Position numbers and translations under genes: made by a program
Notes under the pieces: model-generated
What the model saw: only the letters and a program-made list of their open reading frames with translations
What the model was told of the DNA's origin: nothing
Database searches by the model: none
Assembly: GCA_963575745.1 (NCBI GenBank)
Contig: CAUYUJ010000194.1
Coordinates: 62,001 to 116,984 of the forward strand
Reading direction: 5' to 3'
Length of the DNA stretch: 54,984 bases
Origin: Prorocentrum cordatum
Taxonomy: Eukaryota
Part shown: piece after piece, positions 3,650 through 43,900 of the stretch
How the letters are laid out: the number at the start of each line of letters is the position of its first letter
Numbering within the stretch: the first letter of the stretch is position 1

Positions 3650-3650
3650 A

Positions 3651-4700: not shown

Positions 4701-4933
4701 ACTCTTAAGCTTCGCCGCTGCGCTCTCAGGGAAGCTCTACGAGTCACTTGCCAGCGTCCAAAGCCCGGAGAGCGAGATGACCTTTGGGGTCGGGAGATCT
4801 TTCCTAGAGAGCTCCCTGGGGCCCTCTTGAAGCGCTTCGAAGGCACTGCCAGGCACGCCCCCGTGCGTGCCTGCACGCGTGCCAGCACACGTGGATGCGT
4901 GCCTTCCTGCAACTGGGCGCCGGCGGTAAACCG

Positions 4934-7712
4934 TCAACCTTGGTTTTTGTTTGTTTGGACTCGCGTTCCCAGCTGAGTGCAGCTGGGCGAGGACCGGTCC
5001 CGCAGAAGCACACGGGCAGCGCTGAGCAGCGCTTCGGCTGCCGACAATTCACATTCTGTGACTGTAGCTCCTTCGAGGAGCCACGCGGCCTCGGCCAAAT
5101 CGCTCCAAACGAGGGACACGGCACTAGAAACAGCAAGCTCATGCCCAGCAGGGAAGGGGCCCACGGTTCTCGCGGAAGCGATGCCTATCTCACTGGGATT
5201 GCACTGAGTATTGATTAAGCCGATCTGAAGCCAGAAACCACATCCTGATCCTTGCTGGTCAACCCCGCCATCAAAGCCTCCCCTGATAGCGAACGGTAAG
5301 AGATAAGTTTCGAATGGATATAGATAACAATGAGTTCTGTAGAATGTGCGGCCACATCTGGCCTCATGCGTCAATTCATCCGCTCGTGTATTGTCCTCCC
5401 TGAATTCATGTCTCCATATCTCACGTCCCAAGGCAGCAGGCCTCAGATTGAAACACGCAGCGAGCTCAAAGGTACAATCAATCATGGCAGCTGTCCTCTT
5501 GCAGTAGCCACGATTCTCACATCTCCATTTCCCCTGTAGCCAGGAGCAGATAAGTAATGAGTCACCCTTGAACTCAGCAGCAAAACCCTCTGAGGATATA
5601 TCCCACACAGTCGCACGTTCCTGGATCATAGCATAACGTATTGCAAGCTTGGCGGACTCTTTGGGGTCGTACTTGGGGTGCAGAGGGTTGGTCGCGATGT
5701 CGACCGCCTCAGTATCGGCCTTCTCTCGAGCCTCAGGGGAGCCTCGAGGTCCATTAGGAGAGCCCTTCCAAGACACCACAAAGTAATCATAGACCTTAGT
5801 TTTGTTGTATTGTGTAAGGAGTTGCTTCCATACCTCCAAGAACTGAACCCAATCGCCCCGTACAGACTCCCACCACTTTTCCCCAAAGAACTGAATGTAG
5901 GGGAACTGCCAAGACCGACCGCCCACAGACACAGGGCCTCCACGAAGCCGCTTGCCCGAACTAGATAAGGCCCTGTTGCCGTGTTGTCGTAGAACCTCTG
6001 TTATTGTGTCGCGAGCCGTGACCCAGCCAACATTGCACATCATAAGCGCACGTCGGGAGTCTCGAAAGGCCCTCCTCCCCTTTGAGACGGCAAGTGGCTC
6101 GTCTCTGAGAGTGTGGGCAGCTCCCTCTCCAGAGGGCATCGGCTGTGAGCGGGCAATGGAACAGGCGACCTGCGAGCAAAGATCCTCCAGCCGCCTCTCC
6201 ATATCCGTAATCCTCCCCTCCACCTCCGTCACAGTCGCTGCAGGTACATCCTCCCCCCGTCCATCCGTAAAGCGAACACGTTTAGCACGTTGAGTCGTTG
6301 ATCCCTCCACCTCAACCTCCGTCCTTGCCGTCCTGTCCTCCTCCAAAGATAGTAAATATTGCCTCGTGGAGCGCATCATGCCCCAGCTCTTCCAACACAG
6401 CATCTGCACAGCCGACGGGAAACCCCCATCGCAGAAGATTGTCCTGACTCGTGTCAGTGCAGCTGGCCGCCATACCTCCCACCCCACATCTCCTGGCTTC
6501 CTCCTCCCTGACATTCTCAGAAGACACATACCCTCGAACGCATGGATAACCCTCACACACTCACTGTCAATCGTGATGGCCTCTGCTGCATATAAAAGAC
6601 GGCTCTGCACAGTCGATTGATATCGACGAAACTTCTTCACCAGAGGCAGCGCCCTGCACGTAAAGTACTGCACCTGCGCAAAGAATGCCCTTCGGGCCTG
6701 CTGGACGCGCTCCTGCACATCCGCGTGGATAGAAGTGAAACTTCTGGGAATCTGATACCCCAGCACATTCAAACTCTCAACATGCTTGAAAGGAACAATC
6801 CGCGAGCCAATCTGAACCGTGACCGTATCAGTGTACTGAGTACCACACACCATCATCTCTAGACTCTCCTCCTTCCACTCCATCCCCCAATCCCTGAGAG
6901 CAGTAGTGAAGGCAGTGGCCGCTACCTGCGCCTCCGATGCTGATTTGGCGGCCAGAAAAATATTGTCAGCCCAGAGAGCATGATTCCAACGTGCATACCG
7001 ACAATGATCATCATGGCATGGCATCTCGACTCCGACACCGCGCTGATCCAGGCGAGCAATCACATCACGCCACATAGCAATAGTGACAATAGTAAACGCG
7101 ATAGGTGATTCGGTACCCCCAGTACGGAGCGACCGATCCCACTGCACATTGGGGATTGTCACTCCTTCAAACAGCACCGTGCATGAAGTAGATGAGAGAG
7201 GCTCCAATAACGCATACTGTAACCGTGCACTGATCCCAAGGGCCGTCATCGCTCTCGACTGTCGGCAACGTCACAGCATCAAACGCCCGCTCGATGTCAC
7301 AGCTGAGGAGCCACGCCGTTTGATCTCGCCCCCATGTGGAAGCATGTTGTGCAATACATTTCATGGCCGATGAAATCTCCCAGCAACGTCGTCCGCTGGT
7401 AAAACCGTAAACCGCCATATCACTCATGAAGGGTTCCACACATCGTTCCAGTAAAATCGTCACACACGTGAGATACCATTTGGCCAAGGTATTTCCGACA
7501 AGCAGGTTCCTTGTTTGTCGCAGTGTTTCCAGTTTGCTCGTTTTCGGCATAAGTGTTAGGTATACTTCCTGCCATTCCCTTGGCGTCGGGCGAAGCCCGT
7601 TGAATATATCAGAGAAAACCTTACCAATAGAACGCACTGACCTCCACGAAAGAGACTTGAGAAGTTCAACCGAGATGCCGTCGGGCCCACAGGCCCGTCC
7701 TGTTCGGAGCCT
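4934..7712 (-). pseudogene. ORF2 remnant of LINE copy A (RT plus permuted RNase H-like), 5'-truncated and frameshifted
   Basis: ORF 7167..7787 gives GPDG, YGF, CDIERAFD. ORF 4934..7249 continues with RTGG, LWADN, GDS, FDGG. Frame switch near 7250-7260 in a GAGA tract. Residues beyond 7712 are read from flanking repeat, and the stop codon is supplied by the target. Confidence 0.85.
4944..7712 (-). mobile_element. Non-LTR retrotransposon copy A, 5'-truncated within RT, inserted in the terminal hairpin of a Helentron-like element
   Basis: Left junction ccgtcaaccttgg|tttttgtttgttt (short A-rich tail on minus strand). Right junction joins ggggaactcgtagagcttcc at 7713 with target accgcc missing. 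Encodes RT motifs and an RNase H-like C-terminus. Confidence 0.92.
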
Positions 7713-9865: not shown

Positions 9866-9886
9866 CTGGGCGCCGGCGGTAAACTG

Positions 9887-9898
9887 TCAACCTTGGTT
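9887..9898 (+). repeat. Target-site duplication of LINE copy B, left copy
   Basis: tcaaccttggtt, repeated at 14953-14964; present once in uninterrupted hairpins. The last TT is ambiguous with the tail. Confidence 0.85.
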
Positions 9899-10110
9899 TT
9901 TCGTTTCGCGGACACACGGGCCCTAAGGCCCCGTCCAGTCCGAGGCGGGCGGGCACGCCAAACGCGGGCCACCGAGCGGCTAAGGCGAAAGCCTCACCAC
10001 GCCAAGCACGTGGGGGGCGGCTTAGGCGGTAGCCTCTGGCAGCTCTTATAAGGAGTGCGTACATCAACACAGTGTGTGCACGCATGAAGGCAACACACAA
10101 AAGAGAATCA

Positions 10111-13100
10111 TCAATCACACAACTTATCGCTAAAATAGGCCTGCAAAACCCGTGGGAGTGCTGCAATAACGCACTCTGCAGCGGGGAGTTCCGTATCCGT
10201 CACCGTGGACCCGTCTTGGAGAGCGAAGGAACAAACGTAAACGTCCTTGAAGATAATCTGTGGGGATTCACAGAAGGAAGAGGTGGGCGAGAGATGGGAG
10301 AATCGAGAACGCAGTCCTATCTGAATCCAAGCTCCACTTCCTGCTCCCAGGCTGCACACACCACCATCAAAGCCCGCTTTGATGAGGCAAGGTTCATAGC
10401 ATGACTGTTCGTATGGCTGCAACTGGTACTGTTCGTTCGTGTATTGGTGGCCCTCGCGGGCCTGGTGGGTAAGGAGGTCGGCTTTCTCATTCCATTCCCG
10501 AAACTCATGCTTCAGAAGATCGCGTCCTGCTTCAGCAGGTCTCACACCATACATACAACACATTCCTTCCAAAGCATTAATCATATTATCAACACGTGTC
10601 TGGTATAAGTGATTATCGGCCTTCCAGAGGCCGCAAAGCCAGCAAATGATAAGAAGAGAATCTCCTGTGATCTCCAACGGCACGCCTCCTGAAGTCACGT
10701 CCCAACATGTGCTCCTCATGTTGTGGATTGCTAATCTCTTACTGAATCGCAGGCGTGCAGCGGGAGAATCATCCTCTGTAACAACATACTCCTCATTTCG
10801 TTCAGCCAGAAAGACAGGGGAGTTACCATCATGGATACCTTTGCATTTCTTCTGGAAAAGCTTAAGCATAGAGGGTGTACAATGATGAGTTGCAAACTGC
10901 ATAAAGGCATGAAGGCCGCCTTGGAATACTTCCCACCACCGTGGGCCAAAGAACTCATGAAAGGGTGTCTGCCAACAACGTTGTCCGATCGCTTGCCCTC
11001 CTGACCTCCAGCGTTTCATAACTCCACATTCCCTCCACTTGCCGAAAGCCCGAAGGGCTTCTCCCTCAAGTGTGCGCAGCGTATCATAACTTATTCCAAA
11101 GGCAATCAAACACATGCGTGCATCACTCCATGCTCTATGCTCGTCCGTCATGTCCTCTCCCTGATACAACCTCTGCGCATATGCCGAGACATCCTTTGCC
11201 AGCAGCCACTGAGCTCGGAGAAATCTCTGGACCAAACTGTGGTACCCAGCCTCTGCGAACCTCGATCTGGCATCGCTGTATCTTCTCTCGTGCCATGTAG
11301 CATGGGATTCGTCTGGTTCTCGGCGGCATCGAAGCATGAAGCATAAACACTTGCCCTCAAACGCGTGCAATGCATGGAGGCTATCCTTGTCGGCCGTGCA
11401 GCCATCCGCACCGAAAAGGGCAATACTCTGAACCTTTTGCTGGTATCGTAGGAACTTGTCCTTCAGAGGCGTGCTTTTGTTCCGAAAATATCCTGCCTGG
11501 GAATAAAATGTCCGACGAGCCGCCTCAATCCTAGAGTCCACATCAAGGTGCGAGGAGTACTTATAATCAGAGAACAACTGGACGCCTAGAACCGTCATCT
11601 CAGTAACACGCCTGAACCGCATAACGTCATTCAGGAAGGGTACAAGTAAGTCGGCTGAAGATAGGATCAGCCCCTCTGCATCTCTCGCAGCGTCGGCTCC
11701 GAAGACCATGTAAAGCAAGCTTGAGGGTTTCCAGCGCATGCCGAAATCGTGGAGTCTAACAGTAAGGTCGTGAATCATGCGTGCCAATTCTTCCCTGCTT
11801 CGTGCCAAGATGTAGCAATTGTCTGCCCATACGAAGTGATTGACGACCGACGTGTAGGACGATTTGCCAGACTCCATGGGATCCCCAGTTTTAAAACACA
11901 CTTGATAACCTATGTTCTGTCTATCCCATTGTCGGAAGGTTTCCTGCCACATCGCAGCAATAATAAGATTGAACCCTAGGGGTCCCTCGGCACCGCCCGT
12001 TCTAATACATCTATCCCATCTCACACCCTCCACCTCGATACTTTCATGGCAAACCGTCCCCACACTATCGCATAGTGGATCAAGAAACGCATATTGAAGA
12101 TGATAAGGTACATGCGCGTGCTGCAAACCCCGTCTAACATTGGCTACCGTGCAATGGTCGAAGGCTTGTAGGATATCTGCATTGGCCAGATGTGCTGTTT
12201 CCCCCTTTCCCCATGTAGAAGCATGCTGTCCGATGTGTTTCAAACTCGCCGTGATCTCGTTCGTGGTGCGATTAGATTGGAAGCCGTAAAGACCGAGAGG
12301 GCGAAAGAGACCGTTTCGCTCGACATGTTGTTCCACCAAGATAACAATACATGTGCTGTACCATCGTGCAATAGCGTTCTGCATACATAGAAGCCTACCG
12401 TCCCTAAGATCCGTGATGCCAGGAAGCTCGGGCATAAAGGAGATGAGGATATCACGCCATGAGGAGGGGTACGGTGTGCACATGTGTAGCATATCGTCGA
12501 ACAGGCGTCGGATGTTGCGCAATATCGTCCAAGGGAGACACTTTAACACCTCACACGGTACTCGATCTGGCCCTGTGGCTCGTTGTGTACGGAGACGCGC
12601 CCGCCCACGTCCGAGCAACGCCATAGTGATGGTCGAATACGTGCTGCTACAGAGCTCCTCCCTCGCCTTCTCCTTGATCTCCTCCATCATACTAGCGTTC
12701 TCCTCCCGCATCTGATCCGATGAAAGCTTATTTCTGCAGAAACTGTCGAGCTCCTTCCTCCAAACCTCCCTGTCCTCCGTCTCCTGGCCCTCCACCACCA
12801 AGTGTTTAATATGATGACGAGTCTTTCGACGATTGAGGGGACACTTCCAGGCTGCAACATCTCTGCGATATCGACGGCGATGTAGATTAAGCTCACTCCT
12901 GAGACGTTTCTTTTCCTCTGGAGTCGTGTCTGACGGTAGTTCCCGCCATCTCTCCAAAAGACGAGTCAACTCGATCGGCCTCACAGGTGGCCTCTGCTTG
13001 CCGCTCTGCGTCGTGGTAAAGTCCACGTCAGGAGCAGCAACAAAAGACTGGATGAGCGTGCTAGGTAAGCTGGCTGGCTCCATCTCGAGAGAACGTGCGG

Positions 13101-14103
13101 GAATCCCACGAAACACAACATCTCCCAAGCTCCGATCCACCCTCCTCCTGGCATTGAACTCATCTCCCCATGTCACGCATCGATATCCTACCAGAGAGGG
13201 CGCCGGCGGCTCCACCCGCTCCCTGTGGTCACGTCGCACAATCACACGGCCAGGCGATGCAAACAGCCCAGTTAGAAGTGCATGATCACTTAATCGACTC
13301 CTATTCCTCCTTCCTCCTCTTGCATAACACCAAGAAACTTCACACTCAGAGCACTCCCAGCGGCTGGGCACCAAGATGTAATCGAGCACCTTCTGAATTC
13401 GTCCAAAGCTACGTTGCTCGCACCACGCTTCCCAAGTAGGACGCCTATCTGCAGAAAAGGTATTGGCCGCCTTAAACATGTGGGTCTGCATGAACCCCAG
13501 TAGCATCTCCATCATCCTCCTCCTCCTGTTGATACGCTCCCTCTCCTCCGTACCACATGCCAAGGTCCTGACCTCCTTCCTCAAGCCCTCTCCCGTGGCA
13601 AGATACAATTCCCCATTACATTCTAACTCACATAGTGGCGGTAGCTCAACATTCCCGTCAAGCAAACAAACAAAGCTGGCCTGGCTATACCTGTGTCTGA
13701 GGCTTCTGAAAGTGGCAGACACACGCTCAAGCGTGAGTTCATACTCCGCTTCGCAATCTTCTCGATGAGAATCGGGCAGGTAAAGAGAGCAGACAACCAA
13801 GGGCGAGATGGATGTACCGAACACACCAATGGCGAATCTAGAGAAAGTAGTAACGAATTCCCTGGACGTCGAGGCCCAACTTCGATCGAAGAGGAGCCCC
13901 GCCTTCCTGCAGGCACTGTGCTTGATCTGCCATCCGAGACGGGCGGCATCTGCATGAATTATATTCTGGGCCTCCTGAAGCGCGAACAGACCGCCACATG
14001 CACGCATATGGTTGAGCACCTCCACGCCTCTGAAGTTGTTCTCACCAGCCTTGTCGAGGTTCCAGCATCCCAACTTGATCCCCGACAGCCGGTGCCGATT
14101 CGG
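10111..14103 (-). CDS. LINE ORF2 polyprotein: APE (EEP) endonuclease, reverse transcriptase, circularly permuted RNase H-like domain
   Basis: APE motifs GCWN, LQE, YLP, DGN, NTF, PTW, LDY, SDH. RT motifs GPD, YGF, DILQAFD, RTGG, WADN. C-terminal GDS..HEFREWNEKAD, then FDGG..TEL. Frame is open back to the ORF1 TGA at 14104-14106; the track start at 14073 is a TTG. Confidence 0.92.
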   Translation of the reverse strand, partial: PNRHRLSGIKLGCWNLDKAGENNFRGVEVLNHMRACGGLFALQEAQNIIHADAARLGWQIKHSACRKAGLLFDRSWASTSREFVTTFSRFAIGVFGTSISPLVVCSLYLPDSHREDCEAEYELTLERVSATFRSLRHRYSQASFVCLLDGNVELPPLCELECNGELYLATGEGLRKEVRTLACGTEERERINRRRRMMEMLLGFMQTHMFKAANTFSADRRPTWEAWCEQRSFGRIQKVLDYILVPSRWECSECEVSWCYARGGRRNRSRLSDHALLTGLFASPGRVIVRRDHRERVEPPAPSLVGYRCVTWGDEFNARRRVDRSLGDVVFRGIPARSLEMEPASLPSTLIQSFVAAPDVDFTTTQSGKQRPPVRPIELTRLLERWRELPSDTTPEEKKRLRSELNLHRRRYRRDVAAWKCPLNRRKTRHHIKHLVVEGQETEDREVWRKELDSFCRNKLSSDQMREENASMMEEIKEKAREELCSSTYSTITMALLGRGRARLRTQRATGPDRVPCEVLKCLPWTILRNIRRLFDDMLHMCTPYPSSWRDILISFMPELPGITDLRDGRLLCMQNAIARWYSTCIVILVEQHVERNGLFRPLGLYGFQSNRTTNEITASLKHIGQHASTWGKGETAHLANADILQAFDHCTVANVRRGLQHAHVPYHLQYAFLDPLCDSVGTVCHESIEVEGVRWDRCIRTGGAEGPLGFNLIIAAMWQETFRQWDRQNIGYQVCFKTGDPMESGKSSYTSVVNHFVWADNCYILARSREELARMIHDLTVRLHDFGMRWKPSSLLYMVFGADAARDAEGLILSSADLLVPFLNDVMRFRRVTEMTVLGVQLFSDYKYSSHLDVDSRIEAARRTFYSQAGYFRNKSTPLKDKFLRYQQKVQSIALFGADGCTADKDSLHALHAFEGKCLCFMLRCRREPDESHATWHERRYSDARSRFAEAGYHSLVQRFLRAQWLLAKDVSAYAQRLYQGEDMTDEHRAWSDARMCLIAFGISYDTLRTLEGEALRAFGKWRECGVMKRWRSGGQAIGQRCWQTPFHEFFGPRWWEVFQGGLHAFMQFATHHCTPSMLKLFQKKCKGIHDGNSPVFLAERNEEYVVTEDDSPAARLRFSKRLAIHNMRSTCWDVTSGGVPLEITGDSLLIICWLCGLWKADNHLYQTRVDNMINALEGMCCMYGVRPAEAGRDLLKHEFREWNEKADLLTHQAREGHQYTNEQYQLQPYEQSCYEPCLIKAGFDGGVCSLGAGSGAWIQIGLRSRFSHLSPTSSFCESPQIIFKDVYVCSFALQDGSTVTDTELPAAECVIAALPRVLQAYFSDKLCD

Positions 14104-14952
14104 TCACACCTTGCGGTTGACCTCTACCTCGAAGTCCGTCGCTGTGATCGTCAGATTTGGGAACTTCACCTGAAGTTGGCCCCACTGCGTCTCATGGATC
14201 GTCCACGTCTGGGCTGCTCCGAATTCAGCGATACAGATCGGGCGGAGGAGTCGGTCGCCCTGAGCCTTGACCCACATGTTCGATTTCGGGGGGCCAACCT
14301 CTCCCCTCACCTCCAGGACCAAGCCGTGGCGCTGGCACACGTTACGCCAGGCCCCGCAGAAGCGACCAACTGCACGAACATGGTCGCGCTTCCAAGGAGC
14401 TGATTCGATATTGAAACGTAACTGAGTCGGGTCGATGACCTGCGTCATGCCTGCGATGAGCACGCTGGGATCTGGAATAGTCGTCCCTTCTGGCAAGGGG
14501 GCTCGCTGTGCAGTGGGAGTCACAATGATCCTGAGGAGCTTCTGGAAACGATATAGCACCTCTCGATCAGTGAATGGAAGAAACTTGATGCGACAACTGC
14601 CGAACATGTAGCGACCCGCATTGATACGCTCTGTCCCCTCCTTGCTGAGAAAGGCCTGGTCATCTGAGGCAATAACTTTGGATATATTGTCTACGAGTAT
14701 CATGGTGTCGTCAGAAGTCAGCATTTGAGCACAACGATTCTGATGATTGGCCCAATCCGTAACCCACCCCTTGACCTCGATGTATGTTGGAGAGAACTGG
14801 TTCCTACCCCCGCCTCCTCCACCGCCCCCGTCAGCGGGGCCGCTCCCAGCACTGAAGGTAGACACCGCACTCCCATTCTGAACCGTTTTTAGTGTTTTCT
14901 CGAGTTCGTCCATACGTTTATCCGTTCCGTCCATACGTTTAGTGTGTTCTGC
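14104..14952 (-). CDS. LINE ORF1 protein, 5'-truncated (coiled-coil end, Gly-rich linker, putative RNA-binding domain)
   Basis: Open to the element junction (AEHTKRMDGTDKRMDELEKTL). Homologous to 39420..40823 (PTYIE.KGWVT.W, GRYMFGS, APWKRDHV.AV.RFCGA, EVRGE.GPP). The ORF1 role is inferred from position. Confidence 0.8.
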   Translation of the reverse strand, partial: AEHTKRMDGTDKRMDELEKTLKTVQNGSAVSTFSAGSGPADGGGGGGGGRNQFSPTYIEVKGWVTDWANHQNRCAQMLTSDDTMILVDNISKVIASDDQAFLSKEGTERINAGRYMFGSCRIKFLPFTDREVLYRFQKLLRIIVTPTAQRAPLPEGTTIPDPSVLIAGMTQVIDPTQLRFNIESAPWKRDHVRAVGRFCGAWRNVCQRHGLVLEVRGEVGPPKSNMWVKAQGDRLLRPICIAEFGAAQTWTIHETQWGQLQVKFPNLTITATDFEVEVNRKV

Positions 14953-14964
14953 TCAACCTTGGTT
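14953..14964 (+). repeat. Target-site duplication of LINE copy B, right copy
   Basis: tcaaccttggtt followed by accgccgggagactcgtagag, the remainder of the hairpin. Confidence 0.85.
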
Positions 14965-32576: not shown

Positions 32577-33055
32577 ATTTTGAAAACAAATTTTTCAACC
32601 GACCAAAAGTCACCAAAAGGTCCGTCGAGATTTTTCTTGCCAACTAGCTCTCCAGCGCTCTGGAATTACTCTTAAGCTTCCAGCAATAACTTGCTGAGGG
32701 AAGCTCTACGAGTTACTCTCAAGCTTCCAGCAATAACTTGCTCAGGGAAGCTCTACGAGTTACTAGCTCTCCAGCGTCCCGGAATTACTCTAAAGCTTCC
32801 AGCAATAACTTGCTAAGGGAAGCTCTACGAGTTACCGACCGAAAGTTGTCACATTGTCTCGTCTAGTCGGGTCGGCCAACTAGCCCCACCCCGCGCCGGA
32901 ATTCCTCTAGCTCATCGATGCCGAAGAGCTCTACGAGGTATTACTCTAAGCGTCCAGCTATAACTTGCTGAGGGAAGCTCTACGAGTTACTCTCAAGCTT
33001 CCAGCAATTACTTGCTAAAGGAAGCTCTAAGTACTAGCTCTCCGGCGCGCCGGAA
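32520..33055. repeat. Stack of element termini (short hairpin modules ending gaagctctacgagtt or gagctctacgaggt)
   Basis: Seven terminal motifs in ~530 bp. Similar stacks at 43990-44185, 46305-46430, 47355-47535, 52450-52710 and 53745-53865. Confidence 0.85.
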
Positions 33056-35429
33056 CTGGGCGCCGGCGGTAAACCGTCAACCTTGGTCACCGCCGGGGAA
33101 CTCGTAGAGCTTCCTACCTCGACTTAAGTTGAGACAACCGATTGCACCTACCAACATTCCGACTTACAGTGAATATTTGTTGACCTCTGAATGCGACAGG
33201 CGGACGGGATGTCTGCGAATCGACCCCTGTCATTACCAGCCCTGCAGCCCCCCTACAGCCCGAGTTAAGTGCAGAAATTCGACAGCACCTCTCAGAATGA
33301 CTCGAACAATACAATAGTTTCGCGGACCTAGTTCGGGCAGCAGACCGAGTTCCGAGCTCTGGACTCGAAAGGCGGACGTGCCTGATCTCTTCAAAGCGAG
33401 TACTGTGACAACAAGCACTGTAGCCCCCCTCAGCGCGAGTTGAGTGAAGAAAACCGAGAGCACTTCTCAAGATGACTCGACCAATACGAATAATTTCGCG
33501 ATTCTAGATCGGGCAGCAAACCGAGTCCAGAGCTCTAGATTCGACAGACAAACGCAACTGATGATTCTGAATCGATTTCTGCAAGTATCACCTCCGTAGC
33601 TGTCCTATAGCTCGAGTTAAGTACAGGAAACCGAGAGCGTCCGTCAAGATGACTCGAATAATACGAATATGTTTGCGAACCTAGCTCGGCTAGCAGACCG
33701 AGTTCAGACCTCTGGGTTCAACAGACGAACGCGCCTGATCATTCTAAATCCATGAGCTGCTTACCAGCTCTGTAGCTGCCCTGAAGCTCGAGTTATCTCG
33801 AGAAAACCGTCACCGCGTATCAAGATGACTCGAAACAGCCGATCCCGCCAGAGTGCTTTTTGGCAGTAAAAGGTACCCGATCGAGCTGAGATTAAGATGG
33901 CGAGCGGGAATATGATCGAATATCACGGGAAAAAATACTAGAGCTCTAACGAATGTTCAAATTCCGAGAACAAAATTTTCAACCGACCAAAAGTCACCAA
34001 AAGTTCCGTCGAGATTTTTCTTGCCAACTGGGCGCCGGCGGTAAACCGTCAACCTTTCTTACCGCCGGGGGACTCGTAGAGCTTCCTGACAATATATAAT
34101 GTGGAAAAGAATTTCAGAGAACGACTAGTTTTTCAGCCCAAGCGATTATAGACCTCTCAAGATGACTCTAACAAAACAAACGAACAGTTTTCCAATCGAG
34201 CTCGAGTATGAAACCGAGTTCAGACCTCTGAATGCGACAGGCGGACGCGTCTGATGTCTGCGGATCGATTCCTGTGATTACCAGCTCTGCAGCCCCCCAT
34301 ACAGCCTGAGTTAAAGTGCAGAAAACCGAGAGTACCTCTCAGGATGACTCGAATAATACAACAGTTTCGCGGATCTCGTTCGAGCAGCAGACGAGTTCCG
34401 AGCTCTCGGTTCGACGAACGGACGCGCCTGATGTCTCGAAATCGATTCCTGTGACCAGCAGCACTGTAGCCCCCCCCAGCACGATTTAAGTACAGAAAAC
34501 CGAGAGCACTTCTCAAGATGACTCGAACAATACCAATAGGTTCGCGAACCTAGCTCGGGGAGCAGGCCGAGTTCAGAGCTCTTGATTCAACAGACGAACG
34601 CGCCTGATAATTCTCAATCGATTTCTGTGATTATCAGCTCTGTGGCTGCCCTACAGATCGAGTTAAGTACGAAAAACCGAGAGCGTCTGCTACAATGACT
34701 CGAAGAATACGAATAGGTTTGCGACCCTAGCTCGGCTAGCAGACCGAGTTCAGACCTCTGGATTCAACAGGCGAACGCGCCTGATCATTCTGAATGCATT
34801 AGCTGCTGACCAGCTCTTAGTTGTCCTGAAGCTCGAGTTATCTTGAGAAAACCGACAGCGCGTATCAAGATGACTCGAAACGGCCGTTCCCGCCTGTGCT
34901 TTTTGGCCTTCAAAGTTACCCGATCGAGCTGAGATCAAGATGGCGAGCGGGAATAAGATCGAATATCATGGGAAAAAATACTAGAGCTCTAACGAATGGT
35001 CAAATTTCGAGAACAAAATTTTCAACCGACCAAAAGTCAGCAAAAGGTCCGTCGAGATTTTTCTTGCCAACTAGCTCTCCAGCTCCCCGGAATTACTCTT
35101 AAGCTTCCAGCAACTGGGCGCCGGCGGTAAACCGTCAACCTTTCTTTTTGCGGCTTTGCGAGGCTCCTACTGGCCCTAGGGCCACGAGCAAGCATGAGGT
35201 CAGGTGTCATCAGGAAGCGAAAGCTCTTATTCGAACCTAAAGTCAAGACAACCCAGAGCAGCGAAGCTGCGATGAATCATCAATCACAAATATGAGCGAA
35301 CGAGCAAACGCACACAGAAATGAATCAAAGTGCAGTCAACTAAACATGCAAGAGAAAAGAGAAGTCCCAGCGAAAGCTGAGTAAATCATAGTATGAGGAA
35401 GAACAGTGAAATAAGAAAAACTGCAACTA

Positions 35430-38400
35430 TCAAGTCTGTGATAACCATAGAACTGCCTGTGGGAGCGCAGTCACGATGCACTCCAAAGCACTGAGTTCTG
35501 TATCAGTAACAGTTGTGGTCGGAGAAATAAGCCAAGCCCTCTCAAAAACTGACTTCCATATCAGCTGAGCGGGGTCCCGTCGATCCCAATACCGAGGTTT
35601 GAGGCCTATGTCTATCCAGCAACCGCACCCACATCCCTCAGACGACACGCCGCCATCGAAACCAGCCCGAATAGCAGCAGCAACGTAAAATTCTGTCTCA
35701 TAATCATGTGTATACGGACTACATTCTGAACTAGAAATCTGGCCCTCTCGGGCCTGGTGTGTTAGAACGTCGGCACGAGTGTTCCACTCCCGAAAATCAT
35801 GACGAATAAGATCCATACCCGGCGCTGGAGGTCGTATATTATAGCTGCAACAAAGCCCATCAAGCGTATTGATAATTTTTGATATTCTATCCGCATATGA
35901 TCTATTATCTGCACGCCACCGTCCCGTAGCCCAGCTAACCACGAGAAGCGAGTCACCCACCACCTCCAGAGGGATTCCAGGGGCCTCCAGGTTCCAACGG
36001 GTTGCTTTCATATTATGAAGAGCGATGCGCTTTGCAAGTTTCTCAGCAGCCATCGGACTATCATCCGTGCTCACCTGGATTTCACCATGCTCGGAGGGCG
36101 CCAAATATGCGGGCGAACTCACAGGTCCGCACGTCGACACCTCCTGGAAACATTGAAGCATGCTATGAGTACAAAGGTGCGTGGCGTATTGCATAAATCC
36201 AAGCTGGGAGCCTGTGAAATGAATCCACCAATCATCTCCGAAAAACTCAGCTAATGTATATTGCCATGATCTCTGTCCAATACTCTCCGTACCTCGACAG
36301 CGACGTTTGTAAGAAGAGGCCTCCGACCAGTTGCCAAAGTGTCTCATCGTCTCGCTCATAAGTGTACGAGTGCGGTCAGTGTACGGTCCAAAACATAAAC
36401 TCGCCATACGGGAATCGCGCCATGTCCTCTCCGCCGCCTTCAAGTCAATCACTTTCTCAACAATCATGCCATTTGCGAAACTTGCAATGTCTTTTGCGAA
36501 ATTCCAGTGCAATATCAGATAACGCTGGACAAGAGAGGAGTACCCAGCCTTCAAGAAACGTTCCCGTGCGACATGATATCTCCTCTGCTGATAAGCTTGC
36601 TCCGTTTCCGTCGGGCCTTTTCGAGAAGAGATCATCATCTTCAGGCATTTCCCTTCGAAGGAATGGAGAAACGAGAGAGTATAAGAATCTGCAGTGGTGG
36701 TCTCCATACCATACAGAGCCAGGCTCTGGACTCTGTCCTGGTATCTCCGCAGCTTATCCTTGAGAGGAATACAGTGCGACCTGAAATACCCTGCCTGAGA
36801 GTAAAATGCGCGACGAGCACAGTCTACGCGAAAAGAAACATCACGATGTACAGAACAGCTATATTCACTATGCAGCTGCGTGCCCAGTACGTCCATAGAA
36901 ACAACTCTACGGTAACATAACTCATCAATCTGCTGCACTGCATTCCTCCCGTCACATGCATCTGAGAAGATCGGTATTTTAAGATCCATCGAACGCGGGA
37001 TATTCCCGTCCTCATCCAAGACAGCAGGAGCTCCGCACACCATGTACTTCAGCGATGTGGGTTTCCATCGCATCGAGAAGTTGTAAAGTGGAAGTGTCAA
37101 GTCTCTTACCATACGAGTAAGCTCCTCACGGCTACGACTGACGAGGTACACGTTATCTGCCCAGATAAAATGATTCACCACCGACCGATGCTCCGTACCG
37201 AAATCTACCGCATACCCCATGCCCTGAACGTCCCAATTATGAATAACGTCACCCCACATGGCAGCAATAATGAGGTTAAAGCCCAAGGGCCCTTCTGGGC
37301 CTCCAGTCCTAATACAGGTGTCCCACTGGATGTTATCAATCTCCAACCCGTCATAGTAGAGGCAGCCCGTGCTGTGCGATAACGGATCCAGAAACGCGTG
37401 CTGTAAATACGCAGGGACACGTGCATGCTCAAGACCCTTATGAACGTTCTGTATCGTGCAGTTGTCAAAGGCCTGGTATATGTCCATGTCCGCAACGTAC
37501 AGACACTCACGCTTCCCCCACTTGTCCCCGTGCATACACATGTTAGTAAGGCTACTCGTGATATGGGATGTGCTGTGACCCTGACGGAACCCATAGAGGC
37601 CCAGAGGATGAAATAGCTTAGACTCTTCCACATGCTGCTCCACCAGGATAACTACGCACGCCGAGAACCAGCGAGTTATGCTATTCTGTAAGCACAAGAG
37701 TCGAGCATCCGCCAAGTTCGTGATCCCCTTTAGTTTAGGCATGTATGCAATGAGAATGTCCCTCCATCGAACAGGGTACTGGACAACCAGCCTCAAAAGA
37801 GAGTCGAAGATCTGTTGGATGTGCCGAACTGTGCACCATGGGAGAAGCTTGAGCATTTCACAAGGTACGCGATCCGGTCCTGTTGCCCGTCGCGTTCGAA
37901 GACGAGCCCTCGCTGCACAACATATCGACATCGTAATACTTCGAATGATCTGGCCACCCTTGATCTCCTCCTCCGCCTTCCTCCTGATTTCCTCCATCAA
38001 GTTGCTGTTCTCCTCCCTCCTACGCTGTGATGTCACCTTCCCCTTAACATGCTCCTCCAACTTCTCCTTCAAGATATATCTATCCTCCGTCTCCCATCCA
38101 TCAACCACCACATGTTTGATACGATGTCGAATCTTACGACGAGTCGGGGGTACAGCCCATTCAAGAAGATCACGCCGATACTGTCTCCTCCAAACATTGG
38201 CAGCTGCTCTGAGTCTCTTTTTCTCTGGACCATTCTGAAGGGACCGAATCCGCTCTTCGAGACGTGTGAGCTCGGGCGGGCGAGTAGGCGCTGGAGGCCG
38301 GGCAGCTGAGGCCGTGGAGTAATCCACATCCTCCTGCGTAAATGCTTTCAAAATGACAGGAGCGGTCTCTGTCACGTCCTGTGGTCGTGTCGACGCAGCT

Positions 38401-39419
38401 GGAGGGGAACCACATCCAGCAAACACGGCACCGCAAAACTCGAGGTCAACCCTTTCCCTCCCTATCATCTCGTCCGCATACGTCTGAGCCCGCCATCCCA
38501 CCAAAGAAGGTTCCCTATGCACACGCTCGACTGTCCAATCAGTCCTGCCAGGACTGGACTGTCGTACTGTGCACATAACTAGAGCATGATCAGCAAGTCT
38601 ACTACGATTATGAGTTCCTCCGCTGCGATACTTGAAATCGATCTTACACTCCTGCACCTCCCACCCCATCGGAACCATCACATAGTCTAAGACTCTCCTC
38701 ATCGATCTAGTCCGAGAACGATTTCGCTCTTGTCCCCAGGGCTCCCAGGTCGGGCGACGACGGTCGAAGGTGTTGGCAGCTAACAAACCCCAAGTCTGCA
38801 TAAAGGTCAGCAAGTTATCCGTCAATATCTGCCTCCTATCCTTCCTCTCCCTCTCCGCCTTCCCCTCAGATCCCGTCCTCCTCCATGATTTCGTACCTGT
38901 CCCAGTGGCAGCATAACCCTGACCTGCAACCTCAAGCTGAACAAGTGGTGGCAACTCAACATTGGCATCCGCAAGCAAACAAAAGCTGGCCTGACGATAT
39001 TTCTGCTTCAAGAGACGGATCTGACCCTCCAACTCCCCCAGCATTTCCGCCGATTCAAGATCACACTGATCACGATCATGATGTGGAAAATAAGCCGAAC
39101 ATATGATCACCTGAGACGCCTCCGTTCCAAACACACCCAAGACAAATCTATCGCAGTCTGTGACACATTCGCGCAGGAGTTGGGCCCACCCATGGGCATA
39201 CAACAAGCCTGCACGTCTATCCCTGGAAGGTTTAAAATGCCAACCGAGTCTATCTAATTCAGCTGAGTCAAAGAACTCACACTCTTGCAAACCGAAAATT
39301 GAAGAGGCTCCTATCTTCCTCAGAGATGTTAGAACCTCGGTCCCACGTGAGTTGGAAACACCCGAATTACCTACATTCCATGTTCCGATACGAAGTCCCT
39401 TGCTCCAATATCGTTTTTG
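35430..39419 (-). CDS. LINE ORF2 polyprotein: APE endonuclease, reverse transcriptase, circularly permuted RNase H-like domain
   Basis: Frame is open upstream of the track start (39290) through QKRYWSKGLRIGTWNVG..FGLQE to the ORF1 TGA. APE motifs TWN, LQE, YFP, DAN, LDY, ADH. RT motifs DIYQAFD, RTGG, WADN. Then GDS..READ-like block (REWNTRAD) followed by FDGG..TEL. Confidence 0.92.
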   Translation of the reverse strand, partial: QKRYWSKGLRIGTWNVGNSGVSNSRGTEVLTSLRKIGASSIFGLQECEFFDSAELDRLGWHFKPSRDRRAGLLYAHGWAQLLRECVTDCDRFVLGVFGTEASQVIICSAYFPHHDRDQCDLESAEMLGELEGQIRLLKQKYRQASFCLLADANVELPPLVQLEVAGQGYAATGTGTKSWRRTGSEGKAERERKDRRQILTDNLLTFMQTWGLLAANTFDRRRPTWEPWGQERNRSRTRSMRRVLDYVMVPMGWEVQECKIDFKYRSGGTHNRSRLADHALVMCTVRQSSPGRTDWTVERVHREPSLVGWRAQTYADEMIGRERVDLEFCGAVFAGCGSPPAASTRPQDVTETAPVILKAFTQEDVDYSTASAARPPAPTRPPELTRLEERIRSLQNGPEKKRLRAAANVWRRQYRRDLLEWAVPPTRRKIRHRIKHVVVDGWETEDRYILKEKLEEHVKGKVTSQRRREENSNLMEEIRRKAEEEIKGGQIIRSITMSICCAARARLRTRRATGPDRVPCEMLKLLPWCTVRHIQQIFDSLLRLVVQYPVRWRDILIAYMPKLKGITNLADARLLCLQNSITRWFSACVVILVEQHVEESKLFHPLGLYGFRQGHSTSHITSSLTNMCMHGDKWGKRECLYVADMDIYQAFDNCTIQNVHKGLEHARVPAYLQHAFLDPLSHSTGCLYYDGLEIDNIQWDTCIRTGGPEGPLGFNLIIAAMWGDVIHNWDVQGMGYAVDFGTEHRSVVNHFIWADNVYLVSRSREELTRMVRDLTLPLYNFSMRWKPTSLKYMVCGAPAVLDEDGNIPRSMDLKIPIFSDACDGRNAVQQIDELCYRRVVSMDVLGTQLHSEYSCSVHRDVSFRVDCARRAFYSQAGYFRSHCIPLKDKLRRYQDRVQSLALYGMETTTADSYTLSFLHSFEGKCLKMMISSRKGPTETEQAYQQRRYHVARERFLKAGYSSLVQRYLILHWNFAKDIASFANGMIVEKVIDLKAAERTWRDSRMASLCFGPYTDRTRTLMSETMRHFGNWSEASSYKRRCRGTESIGQRSWQYTLAEFFGDDWWIHFTGSQLGFMQYATHLCTHSMLQCFQEVSTCGPVSSPAYLAPSEHGEIQVSTDDSPMAAEKLAKRIALHNMKATRWNLEAPGIPLEVVGDSLLVVSWATGRWRADNRSYADRISKIINTLDGLCCSYNIRPPAPGMDLIRHDFREWNTRADVLTHQAREGQISSSECSPYTHDYETEFYVAAAIRAGFDGGVSSEGCGCGCWIDIGLKPRYWDRRDPAQLIWKSVFERAWLISPTTTVTDTELSALECIVTALPQAVLWLSQT

Positions 39420-40823
39420 TCATTGGCGTCTGTTGACCTCACTCTCTAACATCTGCTTAGTGACAGCCGCCACCGCAGGAAATGCGCTGACAACCTGCTG
39501 CCACTGCGGCTCGTGCACCTCCCAAGTATTACGAGCTGAAGTGAATGTGGCAATATTGATGGGACGCAAAGCACCCTTGGCGACGGTCCATATCAACGAT
39601 CGCGGTGGTCCAATTTCTCCTCTCACTTCGATCTGGGCGTGCTGTTGCGTCATCGTTCTGAACGCTCCGCAAAACCTCGCCACAGCTTTAACGTGATCCC
39701 TTTTCCAAGGTGCGCACTCGATTTGGACACGTAAATTTGATCCTGGGAACTGAATCGCAAGGCCCTCAGTCAAGACTGCAGGTAAGGGCAGACCATTGTG
39801 CCCATCAACAGTATTCTTAATGATTGCATCCCACTTCTTTTTAATCGTCCAGAGCAGGTCCCTACTCGTATTGGGTTTGAAACTGATCTTGACACTGCCA
39901 AACATATACCTGCCCGAATTGATACGCTCAGTTGTTTCACGATCTACTGCATCCTTCTCGAGTTGATTGCATCGCTCCAAGCAATTGTCGATAAGTTTTT
40001 GGCAATCACTCCACGTTAGGAGTTGCTCCGCCCGCGCGCCATGATCTGACCAATTCGTCACCCACCCCTTCAACTCAATGTATGTCGGTCTGAAATCCTG
40101 GAAACGCGAGCTGGGAGATAAGCCAGGCGGCCCGCCGCCTCCAATACCTCCACCAGCCGTAGTACGAGAAACATCTGATCCAGCACCACTTCCATTATGT
40201 ACTTGACGCAGGGCCTCTTCAAATTTATTCATCCTCTCCTCCATCTTATTAGCTCTGTCATCGTGCTTCTGCAATGTACTCTCCACGGCTTTGATATGAT
40301 TGTTCGTGTTCTGAATGGTCTGTAAAATCTCCTCCTTACTATCCTCTGCTTTGAAGAAATGGTCCATGACGAACCGCTCAAACCCAGTGGTGGCAGTTTT
40401 CATCATCTCCTCACGTTGTTTTTGAATATCACCTCCATTCCTCGGTCTCTTGTTTTCTTTATTTGTGTCCACAGCAGCGTTCATATTTGCATCAACCGAA
40501 GAGGATGCACCCAACATTATTGCTTCTGAAATCTGTGATGGAATACCCCACTTGTTTAGAAATGCTTTGTCGTCTTCACGCTGTCGTTTCCCTGATGCAC
40601 GCTCCAAGGATCTTAAATCAGCGGCGTCCCAAGGTTCAAATTGATCCAAGTAGTCGAAATGATCCACACGGTCCTCTCGAGGTGTCAATGGGCAGTCAAG
40701 ATCTTGACTTGTATTCTGATGCCACTGAGCAACTGTTTCGTTCCAACGCCCCAATCCAATTGCTTCCAACAAAGCTTGTCTCGACTCGGGTGTGTCGTAC
40801 GACGTGGTCCCAAATACTTGCAC
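39420..40823 (-). CDS. LINE ORF1 protein (coiled coil plus putative RNA-binding region); start uncertain
   Basis: 467-codon open frame from a GTG. The first ATG of the element is in frame at 40517 (365 aa). Heptad-like segment IQNTNNHIKAVESTLQKHDDRANKMEERMNKFEEAL. Homologous to copy B ORF1. Confidence 0.8.
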   Translation of the reverse strand: MQVFGTTSYDTPESRQALLEAIGLGRWNETVAQWHQNTSQDLDCPLTPREDRVDHFDYLDQFEPWDAADLRSLERASGKRQREDDKAFLNKWGIPSQISEAIMLGASSSVDANMNAAVDTNKENKRPRNGGDIQKQREEMMKTATTGFERFVMDHFFKAEDSKEEILQTIQNTNNHIKAVESTLQKHDDRANKMEERMNKFEEALRQVHNGSGAGSDVSRTTAGGGIGGGGPPGLSPSSRFQDFRPTYIELKGWVTNWSDHGARAEQLLTWSDCQKLIDNCLERCNQLEKDAVDRETTERINSGRYMFGSVKISFKPNTSRDLLWTIKKKWDAIIKNTVDGHNGLPLPAVLTEGLAIQFPGSNLRVQIECAPWKRDHVKAVARFCGAFRTMTQQHAQIEVRGEIGPPRSLIWTVAKGALRPINIATFTSARNTWEVHEPQWQQVVSAFPAVAAVTKQMLESEVNRRQ

Positions 40824-40917
40824 GAAGAATTACGATATGCACCTCAGGCTCTGCTGATCACTACCGCTGGCCTTGGCGGAGGTAGCCCAGGCAGGACAAA
40901 GTCAGCGGCTCCGTGAC

Positions 40918-40940
40918 CTTGAGCCGACACGCCTTGAGCC
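40918..40940 (-). other. Tandem dinoflagellate spliced-leader-like relics at the 5' end of LINE copy D
   Basis: Minus strand GGCTCAAG-GCGTGTC-GGCTCAAG. The DinoSL ends CCATTTTGGCTCAAG, and relics recur with a 15-nt period. Confidence 0.65.
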
Positions 40941-43900
40941 GGGGGACTCGAAGAGCTTCCTGACAACATATAATGTGGGAAATAATTTCAGAGAACGACT
41001 AGTTTTTCAGCCCAAGCGATTATAGACCTCTCAAGATGACTCTAACAAAACAAACGAACAGTTTTCCAATCGAGCTCGAGTATGAAACCGAGTTCAGACC
41101 TCTGAATGAGACAGGCGGACGCGTCTGATGTCTGCAGATCGATTCCTGTGATTACCAGCTCTGCAGCCCCCCATACAGCCTGAGTTAAGTGCAGAAAACC
41201 GAGAGTACCTCTCAGGATGACTCGAATAATACAACAGTTTCGCGGATCTCGTTCGAGCAGCAGACCGAGTTCCGAGCTCTCGGTTCGACGAACGGACGCG
41301 CCTGATGTCTCGAAATCGATTCCTGTGACCAGCAGCACTGTAGCCCTCCCCCAGCACGATTTAAGTACAGAAAACCGAGAGCACTTCTCAAGATGACTCG
41401 AACAATACCAATAGGTTCGCGAACCTAGCTCGGGGAGCAGGCCGAGTTCAGAGCTCTTGATTCAACAGACGAACGCGCCTGATAATTCTCAATCGATTTC
41501 TGTGATTATCAGCTCTGTGGCTGCCCTACAGATCGAGTTAAGTACGAAAAACCGAGAGCGTCTGCTACAATGACTCGAATAATACGAATAGGTTTGCGAC
41601 CCTAGCTCGGCTAGCAGACCGAGTTCAGACCTCTGGATTCAATAGGCGAACGCGCCTGATCATTCTGAATGCATTAGCGGTGCTGACCAGCTCTGTAGTT
41701 GTCCTGAAGCTCGAGTTATCTTGAGAAAACCGACAGCGCGTATCAAGATTACTCGAAACGGCCGTTCCCGCCTGCCTGCTTTTTGGCCTTCAAAGTTACC
41801 CGATCGAGCTGAGATCAAGATGGCGAGCGGGAATAAGATCGAATATCATGGGAAAAAATACTAGAGCTCTAACGAATGTTCAAATTTTGAGAACGAAATT
41901 TTCAACCGACCAAAAGTCACCAAAAGGTCCGTCGAGATGTTTCTTGCCAACTGGGCGCCGGCGGTAAACCGTCAACCTTTCTTATCGCCGGGGGACTCGT
42001 AGAGCTTCCTGACAATATATGATTTGGAAAAGAATTTCAGAGAACGACTAGTTTTTCAGCCCAAGCGATTATAGACCTCTCAAGATGACTCTAACAAAAC
42101 AAACAAACAGTTTTCCAATCGAGCTCGAGTATGAAACCGAGTTCAGACCTCTGAATGCGACAGGCGGACGCGTCTGATGTCTGCGGATCGATTCCTGTGA
42201 TTACCAGCTCTGCAGCCCCCCATACAGCCTGAGTTAAGTGCAGAAAACCGAGAGTACCTCTCAGGATGACTCGAATAATACAACAGTTTCGCGGATCTCG
42301 CTCGAGCAGCAGACCGAGTTCCGAGCTCTCGGTTCGACGAACGGACGCGCCTGATGTCTCGAAATCGATTCCTGTGACCAGCAGCACTGTAGCCCTCCCC
42401 CAGCACGATTTAAGTACAGAAAACCGAGAGCACTTCTCAAGATGACTCGAACAAGACCAATAGGTTCGCGAACCTAGCTCGGGGAACAGGCCGAGTTCAG
42501 AGCTCTTGATTCAACAGACGAACGCGCCTGATAATTCTCAATCGATTTCTGTGATTAGCAGCTCTGTGGCTGCCCTACAGATCGAGTTAAGTACGGAAAA
42601 CCGAGAGCGTCTGCTACAATTACTGGCGCCGGCGGTGAACCGTCAACCTGGTCACCGCCGGGAACCTCGTAGAGCTCCTCTCACTAGTAAGAGTGCAGAG
42701 AATCGACACAGAATCAAAAAATGGAGATTTTTCGAAAATCTTGAAATTCGATTTTTTTCGATGTTCATATTCGCTCAGTTCCCGGAAGTCAACTCATGCA
42801 AAAATCCATCGAGAGAGCTGAGCTGCTGTCAGAGAGGAGTTCATATGCCAATGCTCGGCGTAAAAATCTGCTTTTTCAAAATAAATGGTCAAATATCTTT
42901 CAAATTTTCGCAAAACCACCCAAACTGGGCGCCGGCGGTAAACCGTCAACCTTTCTTACCGCCGGGGGACTCGTAGAGCTTCCTGACAATATATAATGTG
43001 GAAAAGAATTTCAGAGAACGACTAGTTTTTCAGCCCAAGCGATTATAGACCTCTGATAACTCTAACAAAACAAACGAACAGTTTTCCAATCGAGCTCGAG
43101 TATGAAACCGAGTTCAGACCTCTGAATGCGACAGGCGGACGCGTCTGATGTCTGCGGATCGATTCCTGTGATTACCAGCTCTGCAGCCCCCCATACAGCC
43201 TGAGTTAAGTGCAGAAAACCGAGAGTACTCTCAGGATGACTCGAATAATACAACAGTTTCGCGGATCTCGTTCGAGCAGCAGACCGAGTTCCGAGCTCTC
43301 GGTTCGACGAACGGACGCGCCTGATGTCTCGAAATCGATTCCTGTGACCAGCAGCACTGTAGCCCTCCCCCAGCACGATTTAAGTACAGAAAACCGAGAG
43401 CACTTCTCAAGATGACTCGAACAATACGAATAGGTTCGCGAACCTAGCTCGGGAGCAGGCCGAGTTCAGAGCTCTTGATTCAACAGACGAACGCGCCTGA
43501 TAATTCTGAATCGATTTCTGTGATTATCAGCTCTGTGGCTGCCCTACAGATCGAGTTAAGTACGAAAAACCGAGAGCGTCTGCTACAATGACTCGAATAA
43601 TACGAATAGGTTTGCGACCCTAGCTCGGCTAGCAGACCGAGTTCAGACCTCTGGATTCAACAGGCGAACGCGCCTGATAATTCTGAATGCATTAGCTGTG
43701 CTGACCAGCTCTGTAGTTGTCCTCAAGCTCGAGTTATCTTGAGAAAACCGACAGCGCGTATCAAGATGACTCGAAACGGCCGTTCCCGCCTGCCTGCTTT
43801 TTCGCCTTCAAAGTTACCCGATCGAGCTGAGATCAAGATGGCGATCGGAAATAACATCGAATATCATGGGAAAAAATACTAGAGCTCTAACGAATGGTCA

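Follow-up and report, generated by a model that had tools for sequence, protein, structure and literature searches.

Known targets of site-specific long interspersed nuclear elements (LINEs) are ribosomal RNA genes, small RNA genes, telomeres, microsatellites and, in a few cases, other transposons. The classical case of one transposon inserting into another is that of Tx1L, a Tx1-clade LINE of Xenopus laevis whose target is the DNA transposon Tx1D. Comparable precision is found in R1, TRAS and SART of the R1 clade, which occupy ribosomal DNA (rDNA) and telomeric repeats, and in R2, which occupies 28S rDNA. Passages of PMC4640811 also name 'transposons' among LINE targets. Here, we analyzed a stretch of 54,984 nucleotides from Prorocentrum cordatum (assembly GCA_963575745.1, contig CAUYUJ010000194.1, positions 62,001 to 116,984 of the forward strand; hereafter the window, with coordinates counted from its first letter), in which four LINEs each break the same stem-loop of a second, highly repeated element, referred to below as the host transposon. 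A preliminary description had been made from the letters of the window alone. We consider it probable that members of a diversified LINE clade use target-primed reverse transcription to enter the 3'-terminal hairpin of a Helitron2/Helentron-like transposon, non-autonomous and very abundant, always at the same position.

Using the two full-length proteins of open reading frame 2 (ORF2) as tblastn queries, LINE coding sequence was found in exactly four places in the window, all on the minus strand and each directly behind an interrupted hairpin. Self-BLAST placed non-repeated DNA of at least 150 bp at 4953-7706, 9907-14952, 23726-24931 and 35151-40935, together with one 320-bp piece, and the rest of the window outside these five stretches consists of host repeat families. 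The 320-bp piece, at 50503-50823, is the one such stretch that is no LINE. The four copies and their immediate surroundings are as follows.

4946 to 7712, minus strand: LINE 1, 5'-truncated, starting near ORF2 residue 503, with a CAAA-repeat/A tail ending at 4946; inserted in a TTGG-loop hairpin with 6 nt lost (ACCGCC).

9899 to 14952, minus strand: LINE 2, with an intact ORF2 at 10111-14103 (1330 amino acids) and ORF1 at 14104-14952 cut at the 5' junction.

9887 to 9898, plus strand: 3'-side copy of the 12-bp duplication at LINE 2, TCAACCTTGGTT.

14953 to 14964, plus strand: 5'-side copy of the 12-bp TCAACCTTGGTT, with the hairpin 3' arm immediately after it.

23719 to 24934, minus strand: LINE 3, a copy with a severe 5' truncation (start near ORF2 residue 990), a 406-residue open frame and an A10 tail; inserted in a TTTG-loop hairpin with 5 nt lost.

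35147 to 40937, minus strand: LINE 4, with ORF1 at 39420-40829 (469 amino acids), an in-frame TGA and ORF2 at 35430-39419 (1329 amino acids); inserted in a TTTC-loop hairpin with 3 nt lost.

LINE 4 is full length or nearly so. The open frames kept in the four copies are 1330, 1329, 778 and 406 residues long; LINE 1 has a frameshift near 7256, and the frames of the other three are open throughout. ORF1 and ORF2 lie in one frame on the minus strand and are parted by a single TGA in both LINE 4 (39420-39422) and LINE 2 (14104-14106), and ORF2 is itself terminated by TGA in three of the four copies. This arrangement suggests stop-codon read-through or reinitiation between ORF1 and ORF2, not another genetic code. 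Stem-loops in the 3' untranslated regions of the four LINEs folded no better than shuffled sequences (z -1.0 to +0.9).

The module that the LINEs interrupt is a constant 46-nt stretch composed of a 10-bp stem and a 14-nt loop, followed by a conserved CTCGTAGAGCTTCC. Its left half (an 18-mer, up to 3 mismatches allowed) occurs 35 times in the window, compared with 0.03 occurrences expected from shuffles, and 32 of the copies lie on the plus strand. Thirty modules continue into the 3' arm, one carries an 11-nt deletion and four enter T-rich LINE tails. Representative positions, in which the slash in TT/A marks the broken step, are given below.

4913 to 4945, plus strand: left part of an interrupted module, comprising the host 3' terminus, the 5' arm and the loop up to the TT of TT/A.

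9866-9898, 23686-23718 and 35114-35146, plus strand: equivalent left parts of the other interrupted modules, also ending at the TT of TT/A.

3650 to 3695, plus strand: example of an intact module (10-bp stem, 14-nt loop), of which the window holds 30.

27310 to 27368, minus strand: module lacking 11 nt, the gap starting one base past the TT/A step.

The junctions between hairpin and LINE lie at 4945/4946, 9898/9899, 23718/23719 and 35146/35147, each exactly 6 nt past the CAACC of the loop. The step broken in all four interrupted modules (4/4) is TT/A at the boundary between loop and 3' arm on the plus strand, that is, the identical phosphodiester bond, and the modules concerned span three host loop subfamilies (TTGG twice, TTTG and TTTC). 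At each junction the plus strand passes directly from ...TT-3' into the complement of the A-rich LINE tail. The break in the other strand is variable, with 12 nt of the loop duplicated by LINE 2 and 3-6 bp deleted at the other three, and the insertions have pushed the hairpin arms 1.2-5.8 kb apart. The 11-nt deletion at 27310-27368 may have been left by endonuclease nicking or by an insertion that was aborted. Within the ~55-kb window, then, 4/4 LINE copies share one position and orientation, in sequence that also holds 1,107 TTA steps (both strands), 189 runs of at least five T or A and one unused 81-nt A run. The last is a pure A run at 1924-2004 within the 175-177-bp internal repeats of a host copy, and no LINE is present there. 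Taking 35 sites among ~110,000 oriented positions, the probability of such a hit is 3.2e-4 per insertion, or ~3e-11 for the three LINEs that follow the first. A contig from another sequencing run crosses the junction of LINE 4 and its hairpin (35123-35675), from which it differs in 14 letters and by 6 gaps; it may represent the same locus in a relative and is hence of little weight. Host repeats swamped the contig tables. The lack of a loose end at the LINE 4 junction among the matches listed does not amount to a test.

Identity between the two full-length ORF2 proteins is 47% (638/1350), the truncated LINE 1 and LINE 3 share 32-42% protein identity with either of them (tblastn), and the ORF1 products of LINE 2 and LINE 4 are 42% identical. 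As DNA, the region of LINE 4 resembles LINE 2 in a single 352-bp stretch of 66% identity. All 5' ends differ, falling at ORF2 residue ~503 in LINE 1, at ~990 in LINE 3 and within ORF1 in LINE 2, with LINE 4 complete or nearly complete, and the host copies around the four LINEs have differing outer flanks and three loop variants. Because protein identity is 32-47%, DNA similarity is almost absent, and 5' ends, junctions and host flanks all differ, the four LINEs are independent insertions by diverged lineages and not copies of one event. Since the frames stay long and open at this level of divergence, the copies represent separately evolving, selected lineages rather than decayed duplicates. 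The preliminary description had reported four LINEs in one orientation with their tails at the same base of the hairpin, and this was borne out, all four being on the minus strand and joined 6 nt past CAACC at TT/A. It had identified the correct site for each tail, with the coordinates (4944, 9897, 23717 and 35145) consistently 1 nt too low. Its 12-bp target-site duplication and its deletions of 6, 5 and 3 bp were recovered at the respective copies, its view of the insertions as independent rather than near-identical descendants was upheld, and its statement that no LINE lies elsewhere in the 55 kb agrees with the four tblastn locations; as the whole window is host DNA, information in this respect comes solely from the exact position.

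Among Pfam families, RVT_1 was matched by LINE 4 (E 2.1e-8, 34.6 bits, cut-off 29.6) and no other family was found; LINE 2 scored 27.5 bits for RVT_1, under the cut-off of 29.6. A profile built from seven relatives matched human L1 ORF2p at E 1.7e-9, versus 0.19 for Bombyx R2 (R2Bm). The N-terminal region of ORF2 had no Pfam match; the alignment shows catalytic motifs of the apurinic/apyrimidinic (AP) endonuclease type conserved in its first 300 residues. A structure model of these residues (predicted local distance difference test score (pLDDT) 75.8, predicted template modeling score (pTM) 0.81) matched ExoIII and the R1Bm, TRAS1 and L1 endonucleases, with E ~1e-8 and a probability of 1.0 in each case. 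ORF1 matched no Pfam family. With a reverse transcriptase, an N-terminal endonuclease of the endonuclease/exonuclease/phosphatase fold, and an A-rich tail combined with variable 5' truncation and target duplication or deletion, the elements are AP-endonuclease-type retrotransposons without long terminal repeats, i.e., LINEs. The C-terminal 230 residues of ORF2 (35433-36122 on the minus strand in LINE 4, with equivalents in the other three) carry RNase H-like motifs in what appears to be a circular permutation (GDS..., RE.N.RAD.LTH, then FDGG..., then TDTEL.A.E). Modeling of this domain was confident (pLDDT 85), Foldseek template modeling scores were only 0.16-0.27, and a wide structural search returned nothing at Z of at least 5 and no whole-domain match. 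Three RNase H1 chains matched half of the domain (75-80 residues) at Z 3.4-3.7 and 22-27% identity. Assignment as an RNase H is thus treated as a motif-based lead.

Relatives of these LINEs exist but are rare. A HMMER scan yielded 1462 matches at E of 0.001 or below and 19 at 1e-30, the best full-length relatives were 36% and 31% identical, and all were on short contigs from metagenomes or run assemblies. In a word-based protein search, a 98% identical copy of the LINE 4 ORF2 was the sole match. Words of LINE 4 occurred in runs labeled as marine, freshwater, estuary or plankton metagenome and in three organisms given by code, and no RNA data set was among the listed holders. In two related LINE contigs from metagenomes, a CAAA/A-rich tail resembling the LINE 1 tail (3580-3609 and 1230-1251) runs exactly to the contig end; such ends fit an assembly break at a high-copy flank, but prove nothing. 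A scan of viral contigs gave one marginal match in a giant-virus bin (26% over 70 residues) and 0 hairpin matches.

On the minus strand of the window, a full unit of the host transposon starts with RA followed by CTCGTAGAGCTTCC (5' terminus RACTCGTAGAG), contains 2-5 copies of a 177-bp repeat, and has a mirror repeat GGAAGCTCTACGAG, the inverse of the 5'-terminal CTCGTAGAGCTTCC, 6 nt ahead of the 3' hairpin; its 3' end, CCCAGT, lies 8-10 nt beyond the hairpin stem. One host subfamily has a clear 5' hairpin (-11.6 kcal/mol, z -3.9), another a weak one. Because unit lengths run from 217 to 2030 bp and flanks vary, the family is not a regular satellite. Searching with the 5'-repeat motif returned 35 rows, of which 3 from inverted copies were set aside and 5 lie in a segmentally duplicated stretch; a T precedes all 32 of 32 host 5' ends, within AGT in 14 and within AAT in 8. 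Insertion could be followed directly in one nest of three copies.

3650 to 4700, minus strand: full-length host copy X (~1.05 kb), with 5' CTCGTAGAGCTTCC and 5' hairpin, 177-bp repeats, mirrored repeat, hairpin and CCCAGT.

2603 to 3649, minus strand: full-length host copy Y, which entered immediately behind the AGT that ends X.

4701 to 4745, minus strand: 5' portion (45 nt) of host copy Z; the remainder extends from 2602 leftwards.

When the two pieces of Z were rejoined, they formed an uninterrupted copy, 89/90 nt identical to Y, with no gap and no duplicated base. As joining them restores a gapless copy, X and Y were inserted without target duplication, and this empty-site reconstruction explains the apparent 5' truncation of many host units by nested insertion. 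X and Y are nested in Z (2603-4745) at an AGT that lies 45 nt inside the Z 5' end, where the 5' hairpin has its base, and stacks of 45-47-nt 5' pieces occur elsewhere, e.g., at 32560-33030 and 46300-46420. The AGT 45 nt inside the host 5' end is suggested to be a hot spot of self-insertion. Near the right end of the window, identical Tandem Repeats Finder rows recur ~7.4 kb apart (46307-47474 and 53743-54910); host-family DNA of higher G+C content (0.57) has thus recently been duplicated segmentally within this end.

With precise ends, no target duplication and one orientation after T, the host is a real DNA transposon. Passages of PMC5148889 give asymmetric terminal inverted repeats, terminal hairpins and T-adjacent insertion without duplication as marks of Helitron2/Helentron elements, and all of these were found in the host. 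Its hairpin, 8-10 nt from the 3' end, also agrees with that of canonical Helitrons (Helitron1), placed ~10-12 nt from the 3' end. As in Helitron2/Helentron elements and their non-autonomous HINE/DINE derivatives, host units are arrayed head to tail and contain tandem repeats. The host differs from these elements in its termini (5' RACTCGTAGAG, 3' CCCAGT) and its preferred target (AGT or AAT), and no partner with a Rep-helicase was seen. The architecture matches that of Helitron2/Helentron rolling-circle (HUH) elements, a class assignment made by architecture alone. A mechanistic analogy can be drawn to the IS200/IS605 HUH transposons, for which passages of PMC10288648 describe oriented insertion 3' of a short target, no duplication and recognition of subterminal hairpins; those elements are prokaryotic and much smaller. 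The preliminary description had placed the LINE target in a stem-loop at the 3' end of another transposon and had likened the LINEs to site-specific elements of the AP-endonuclease type. The first statement accords with the hairpin 8-10 nt from the end of an oriented element that makes no target-site duplication, and the second with the fold matches of ORF2 residues 1-300.

Host-family DNA is enormously commoner than LINE DNA. In one run, host-unit words were ~100 to more than 1,000 times as deep as LINE words, depending on the bin, a depth that is not a copy number. Over 34000-42100, run X1 gave word depths of ~1e5 for host units and 1e2-5e2 for LINE 4, again depth rather than copy number. 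The host seems to be an undescribed family that is very abundant in aquatic protists. Searches of the window with Rfam (gathering threshold) and for tRNAs gave no match, and the dinoflagellate spliced-leader motif had 0 matches.

An exact scan of prokaryote genome bins with the 18-mer returned 11 matches, two of which are real relatives on short contigs of a single bin; the other nine look like chance matches in prokaryote genomes (~17 expected by chance, as an estimate). Two further contigs of the same bin carry related modules, giving a total of 28 modules at no more than one mismatch in the loop core. These four contigs of a bacterial-labeled bin consist of short head-to-tail units (~170-700 bp) with the related hairpin module, and look like misbinned eukaryotic repeat DNA. 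They show the host transposon family in a second organism. For an analysis of covariation, 19 of the 28 listed intact modules of the window (near-identical ones dropped) were combined with 25 of 27 from the other organism, two hairpins of the latter being left out for want of a recognizable 3' arm. Across these 44 hairpins, one stem pair is C-G in 25 and G-C in 14, another is G-C in 23, A-T in 13 and C-G in 2, and another is A-T in 26, G-C in 3 and G-T in 11, while the loop core is nearly invariant in both organisms. Folding predictions recover the stem whichever strand is used, at -13.8 to -14.7 kcal/mol. Judged by these patterns, the hairpin is a functional, selected structure, as would be expected of a transposon end that is recognized by a protein.

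In the interpretation that we favor, the plus strand is nicked between T and A at the boundary of loop and 3' arm, 6 nt past the near-invariant loop core, and the exposed ...TT-3' end would prime reverse transcription of the A-rich LINE tail. Priming from this end is indicated because the plus strand runs straight into the complement of that tail. The LINE's own endonuclease, or another DNA-binding part of ORF2, would read the conserved loop and stem as sequence. This would be the one part of the host that could not drift, as the host transposase probably needs it, and the LINE would thereby have a very large number of landing sites, remote from genes. The splitting of the hairpin arms should inactivate the host terminus concerned.

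Several points weigh against this interpretation. The evidence consists of four insertions in one window made entirely of host DNA, and the shared orientation of four LINEs, expected in 1 of 8 cases by chance, is weak evidence of asymmetric recognition. That the LINE endonuclease makes the nick is something we infer. In the second organism, represented by only four short contigs, 0/28 modules were interrupted and no LINE relative was found, and a metagenome scan with the ORF2 alignment produced three related loci that all end at or before the tail, with no flank. As to the host, passages of PMC5148889 give 5'-TC and CTRR-3' termini for canonical Helitrons, and neither these nor insertion between A and T were matched. 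No Rep/helicase ORF was present in the window, and a Helitron_like_N search of the second organism's contigs gave no match, an outcome shared by the control genomes.

Two competing explanations accept the shared position and differ in what they hold responsible for it or in what the target is. The specificity of the LINEs could be real and the target not a rolling-circle element, being instead a DNA transposon of unknown class, an element akin to Replitrons or a satellite whose junction is structured. We regard this as rather unlikely. It draws on the lack of a Rep/helicase gene in the window and on termini unlike those of canonical Helitrons, and the AGT at both host boundaries loosely recalls the short direct terminal repeats that passages of PMC10288648 describe for Replitrons, together with a Y1 Rep transposase. 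This 3-nt AGT is the only point in common, and the Replitron feature is a weaker fit to the host than the Helitron2 marks. Unit lengths of 217-2030 bp and varied flanks do not make a regular satellite, and the absence of duplication, the oriented insertion, the hairpin 8-10 nt from the 3' end and the asymmetric inverted repeats are Helitron2 hallmarks in passages of PMC5148889. Alternatively, the hairpin could be a structural hot spot, at which a cruciform, a single-stranded intermediate or a nuclease of the cell or the host transposon nicks the boundary and any A-tailed LINE can prime. The 10-bp stem that the module forms on either strand (-13.8 to -14.7 kcal/mol), the position of the nick at the boundary of loop and stem, and the imprecise second-strand break all suit such a process, as does the step itself, since TT/A resembles the general preference of L1-type endonucleases. 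It nevertheless appears about equally unlikely. The 4/4 junctions at a single bond, the full tails and the one normal 12-bp duplication are typical of endonuclease-dependent insertion; moreover, a near-equivalent TT/A on the other strand of the palindromic stem was used in 0/4 cases, the 5' hairpin of the same host was never struck and no LINE of another clade is present in the window.

Two further readings deny a targeted insertion into a DNA transposon and fare much worse. The ~1-kb units might be retroelements resembling short interspersed nuclear elements (SINEs) that are moved by the LINEs, with the hairpin half downstream serving as a shared 3' module. Units and LINEs are indeed co-oriented, and the units at first look 5'-truncated with a constant 3' end. 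This SINE-like reading is contradicted by the LINE flanks, where the hairpin continues exactly on the 5' side of every LINE and 12 loop nt are duplicated at LINE 2. In addition, the truncation of units reflects nested insertion with a clean empty site and no duplication, the units have no A tail, and the 3' ends of the LINEs are dissimilar to them; we hold it to be very improbable. Even less credible, to the point of being negligible, is an origin by chance or duplication, in which one old insertion was copied with the array or random hits fell in a region that is all host. The window is wholly host DNA and includes a segmental duplication (46307-47474 and 53743-54910). However, the divergence of the LINEs contradicts this reading, as they differ in protein (32-47% identity), DNA, truncation, junction type and host flanks, and three more hits on the same oriented position have the chance of ~3e-11 given above.

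A more far-reaching version of the favored interpretation, which we rate as unlikely, is that the LINEs form an old, obligate hyperparasitic clade reading the invariant loop by which the transposase of a rolling-circle transposon recognizes its end, and that the destroyed terminator hairpin makes replication-transposition of the host run on to the next hairpin, so that the LINE is carried along as DNA cargo. If this were true, such LINEs would have two modes of spread, as RNA by their own enzymes and as DNA by the Helitron-like machinery, and an arms race would take place over a stretch of sequence that the host element is unable to alter.

Compared with the systems described previously, the LINEs reported here resemble Tx1L in being AP-endonuclease elements with a specific site inside another multicopy transposon. 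In contrast to Tx1L, their target is the terminal hairpin of a Helitron2-like element that makes no target-site duplication, presumably a signal for its transposase, and four lineages at 32-47% identity have it in common. With R1, TRAS and SART they share the N-terminal AP-type endonuclease, for which R1Bm and TRAS1 are among the best fold matches, as well as a precise first-strand nick, a variable second break and a conserved multicopy target, which here belongs to a selfish element instead of to a host gene or telomere. Similarity of ORF2 to solved LINE proteins is low, the best being L1 ORF2p at E 1.7e-9. Strict specificity for an unchangeable sequence and the presence of many diverged lineages at one site recall R2, whereas R2 has an endonuclease of the other, restriction-like type, and the profile matched R2Bm at only E 0.19. 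No description of a LINE targeting a Helitron-type element or its hairpin was found in the open-access papers searched. Site-specific behavior of LINEs is therefore known; the class of target is new, and the specificity is conserved over deeply diverged lineages.

Overall, four diverged LINEs at one base of an abundant transposon's hairpin suggest a parasite that has specialized on a second genomic parasite. A LINE clade homing on the terminal hairpin of a rolling-circle-type element, as in the interpretation that we favor, would add a new class to the targets of LINEs and would be a clear case of one selfish element specialized on the essential cis-signal of another. It would also offer a natural system in which to study the recognition of palindromic or hairpin targets by an AP-type endonuclease, and a further protein-guided retrotransposon with single-nucleotide precision, which is of relevance to targeted integration. 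For the genome in which it resides, such a LINE may act as a brake on a hugely amplified transposon.

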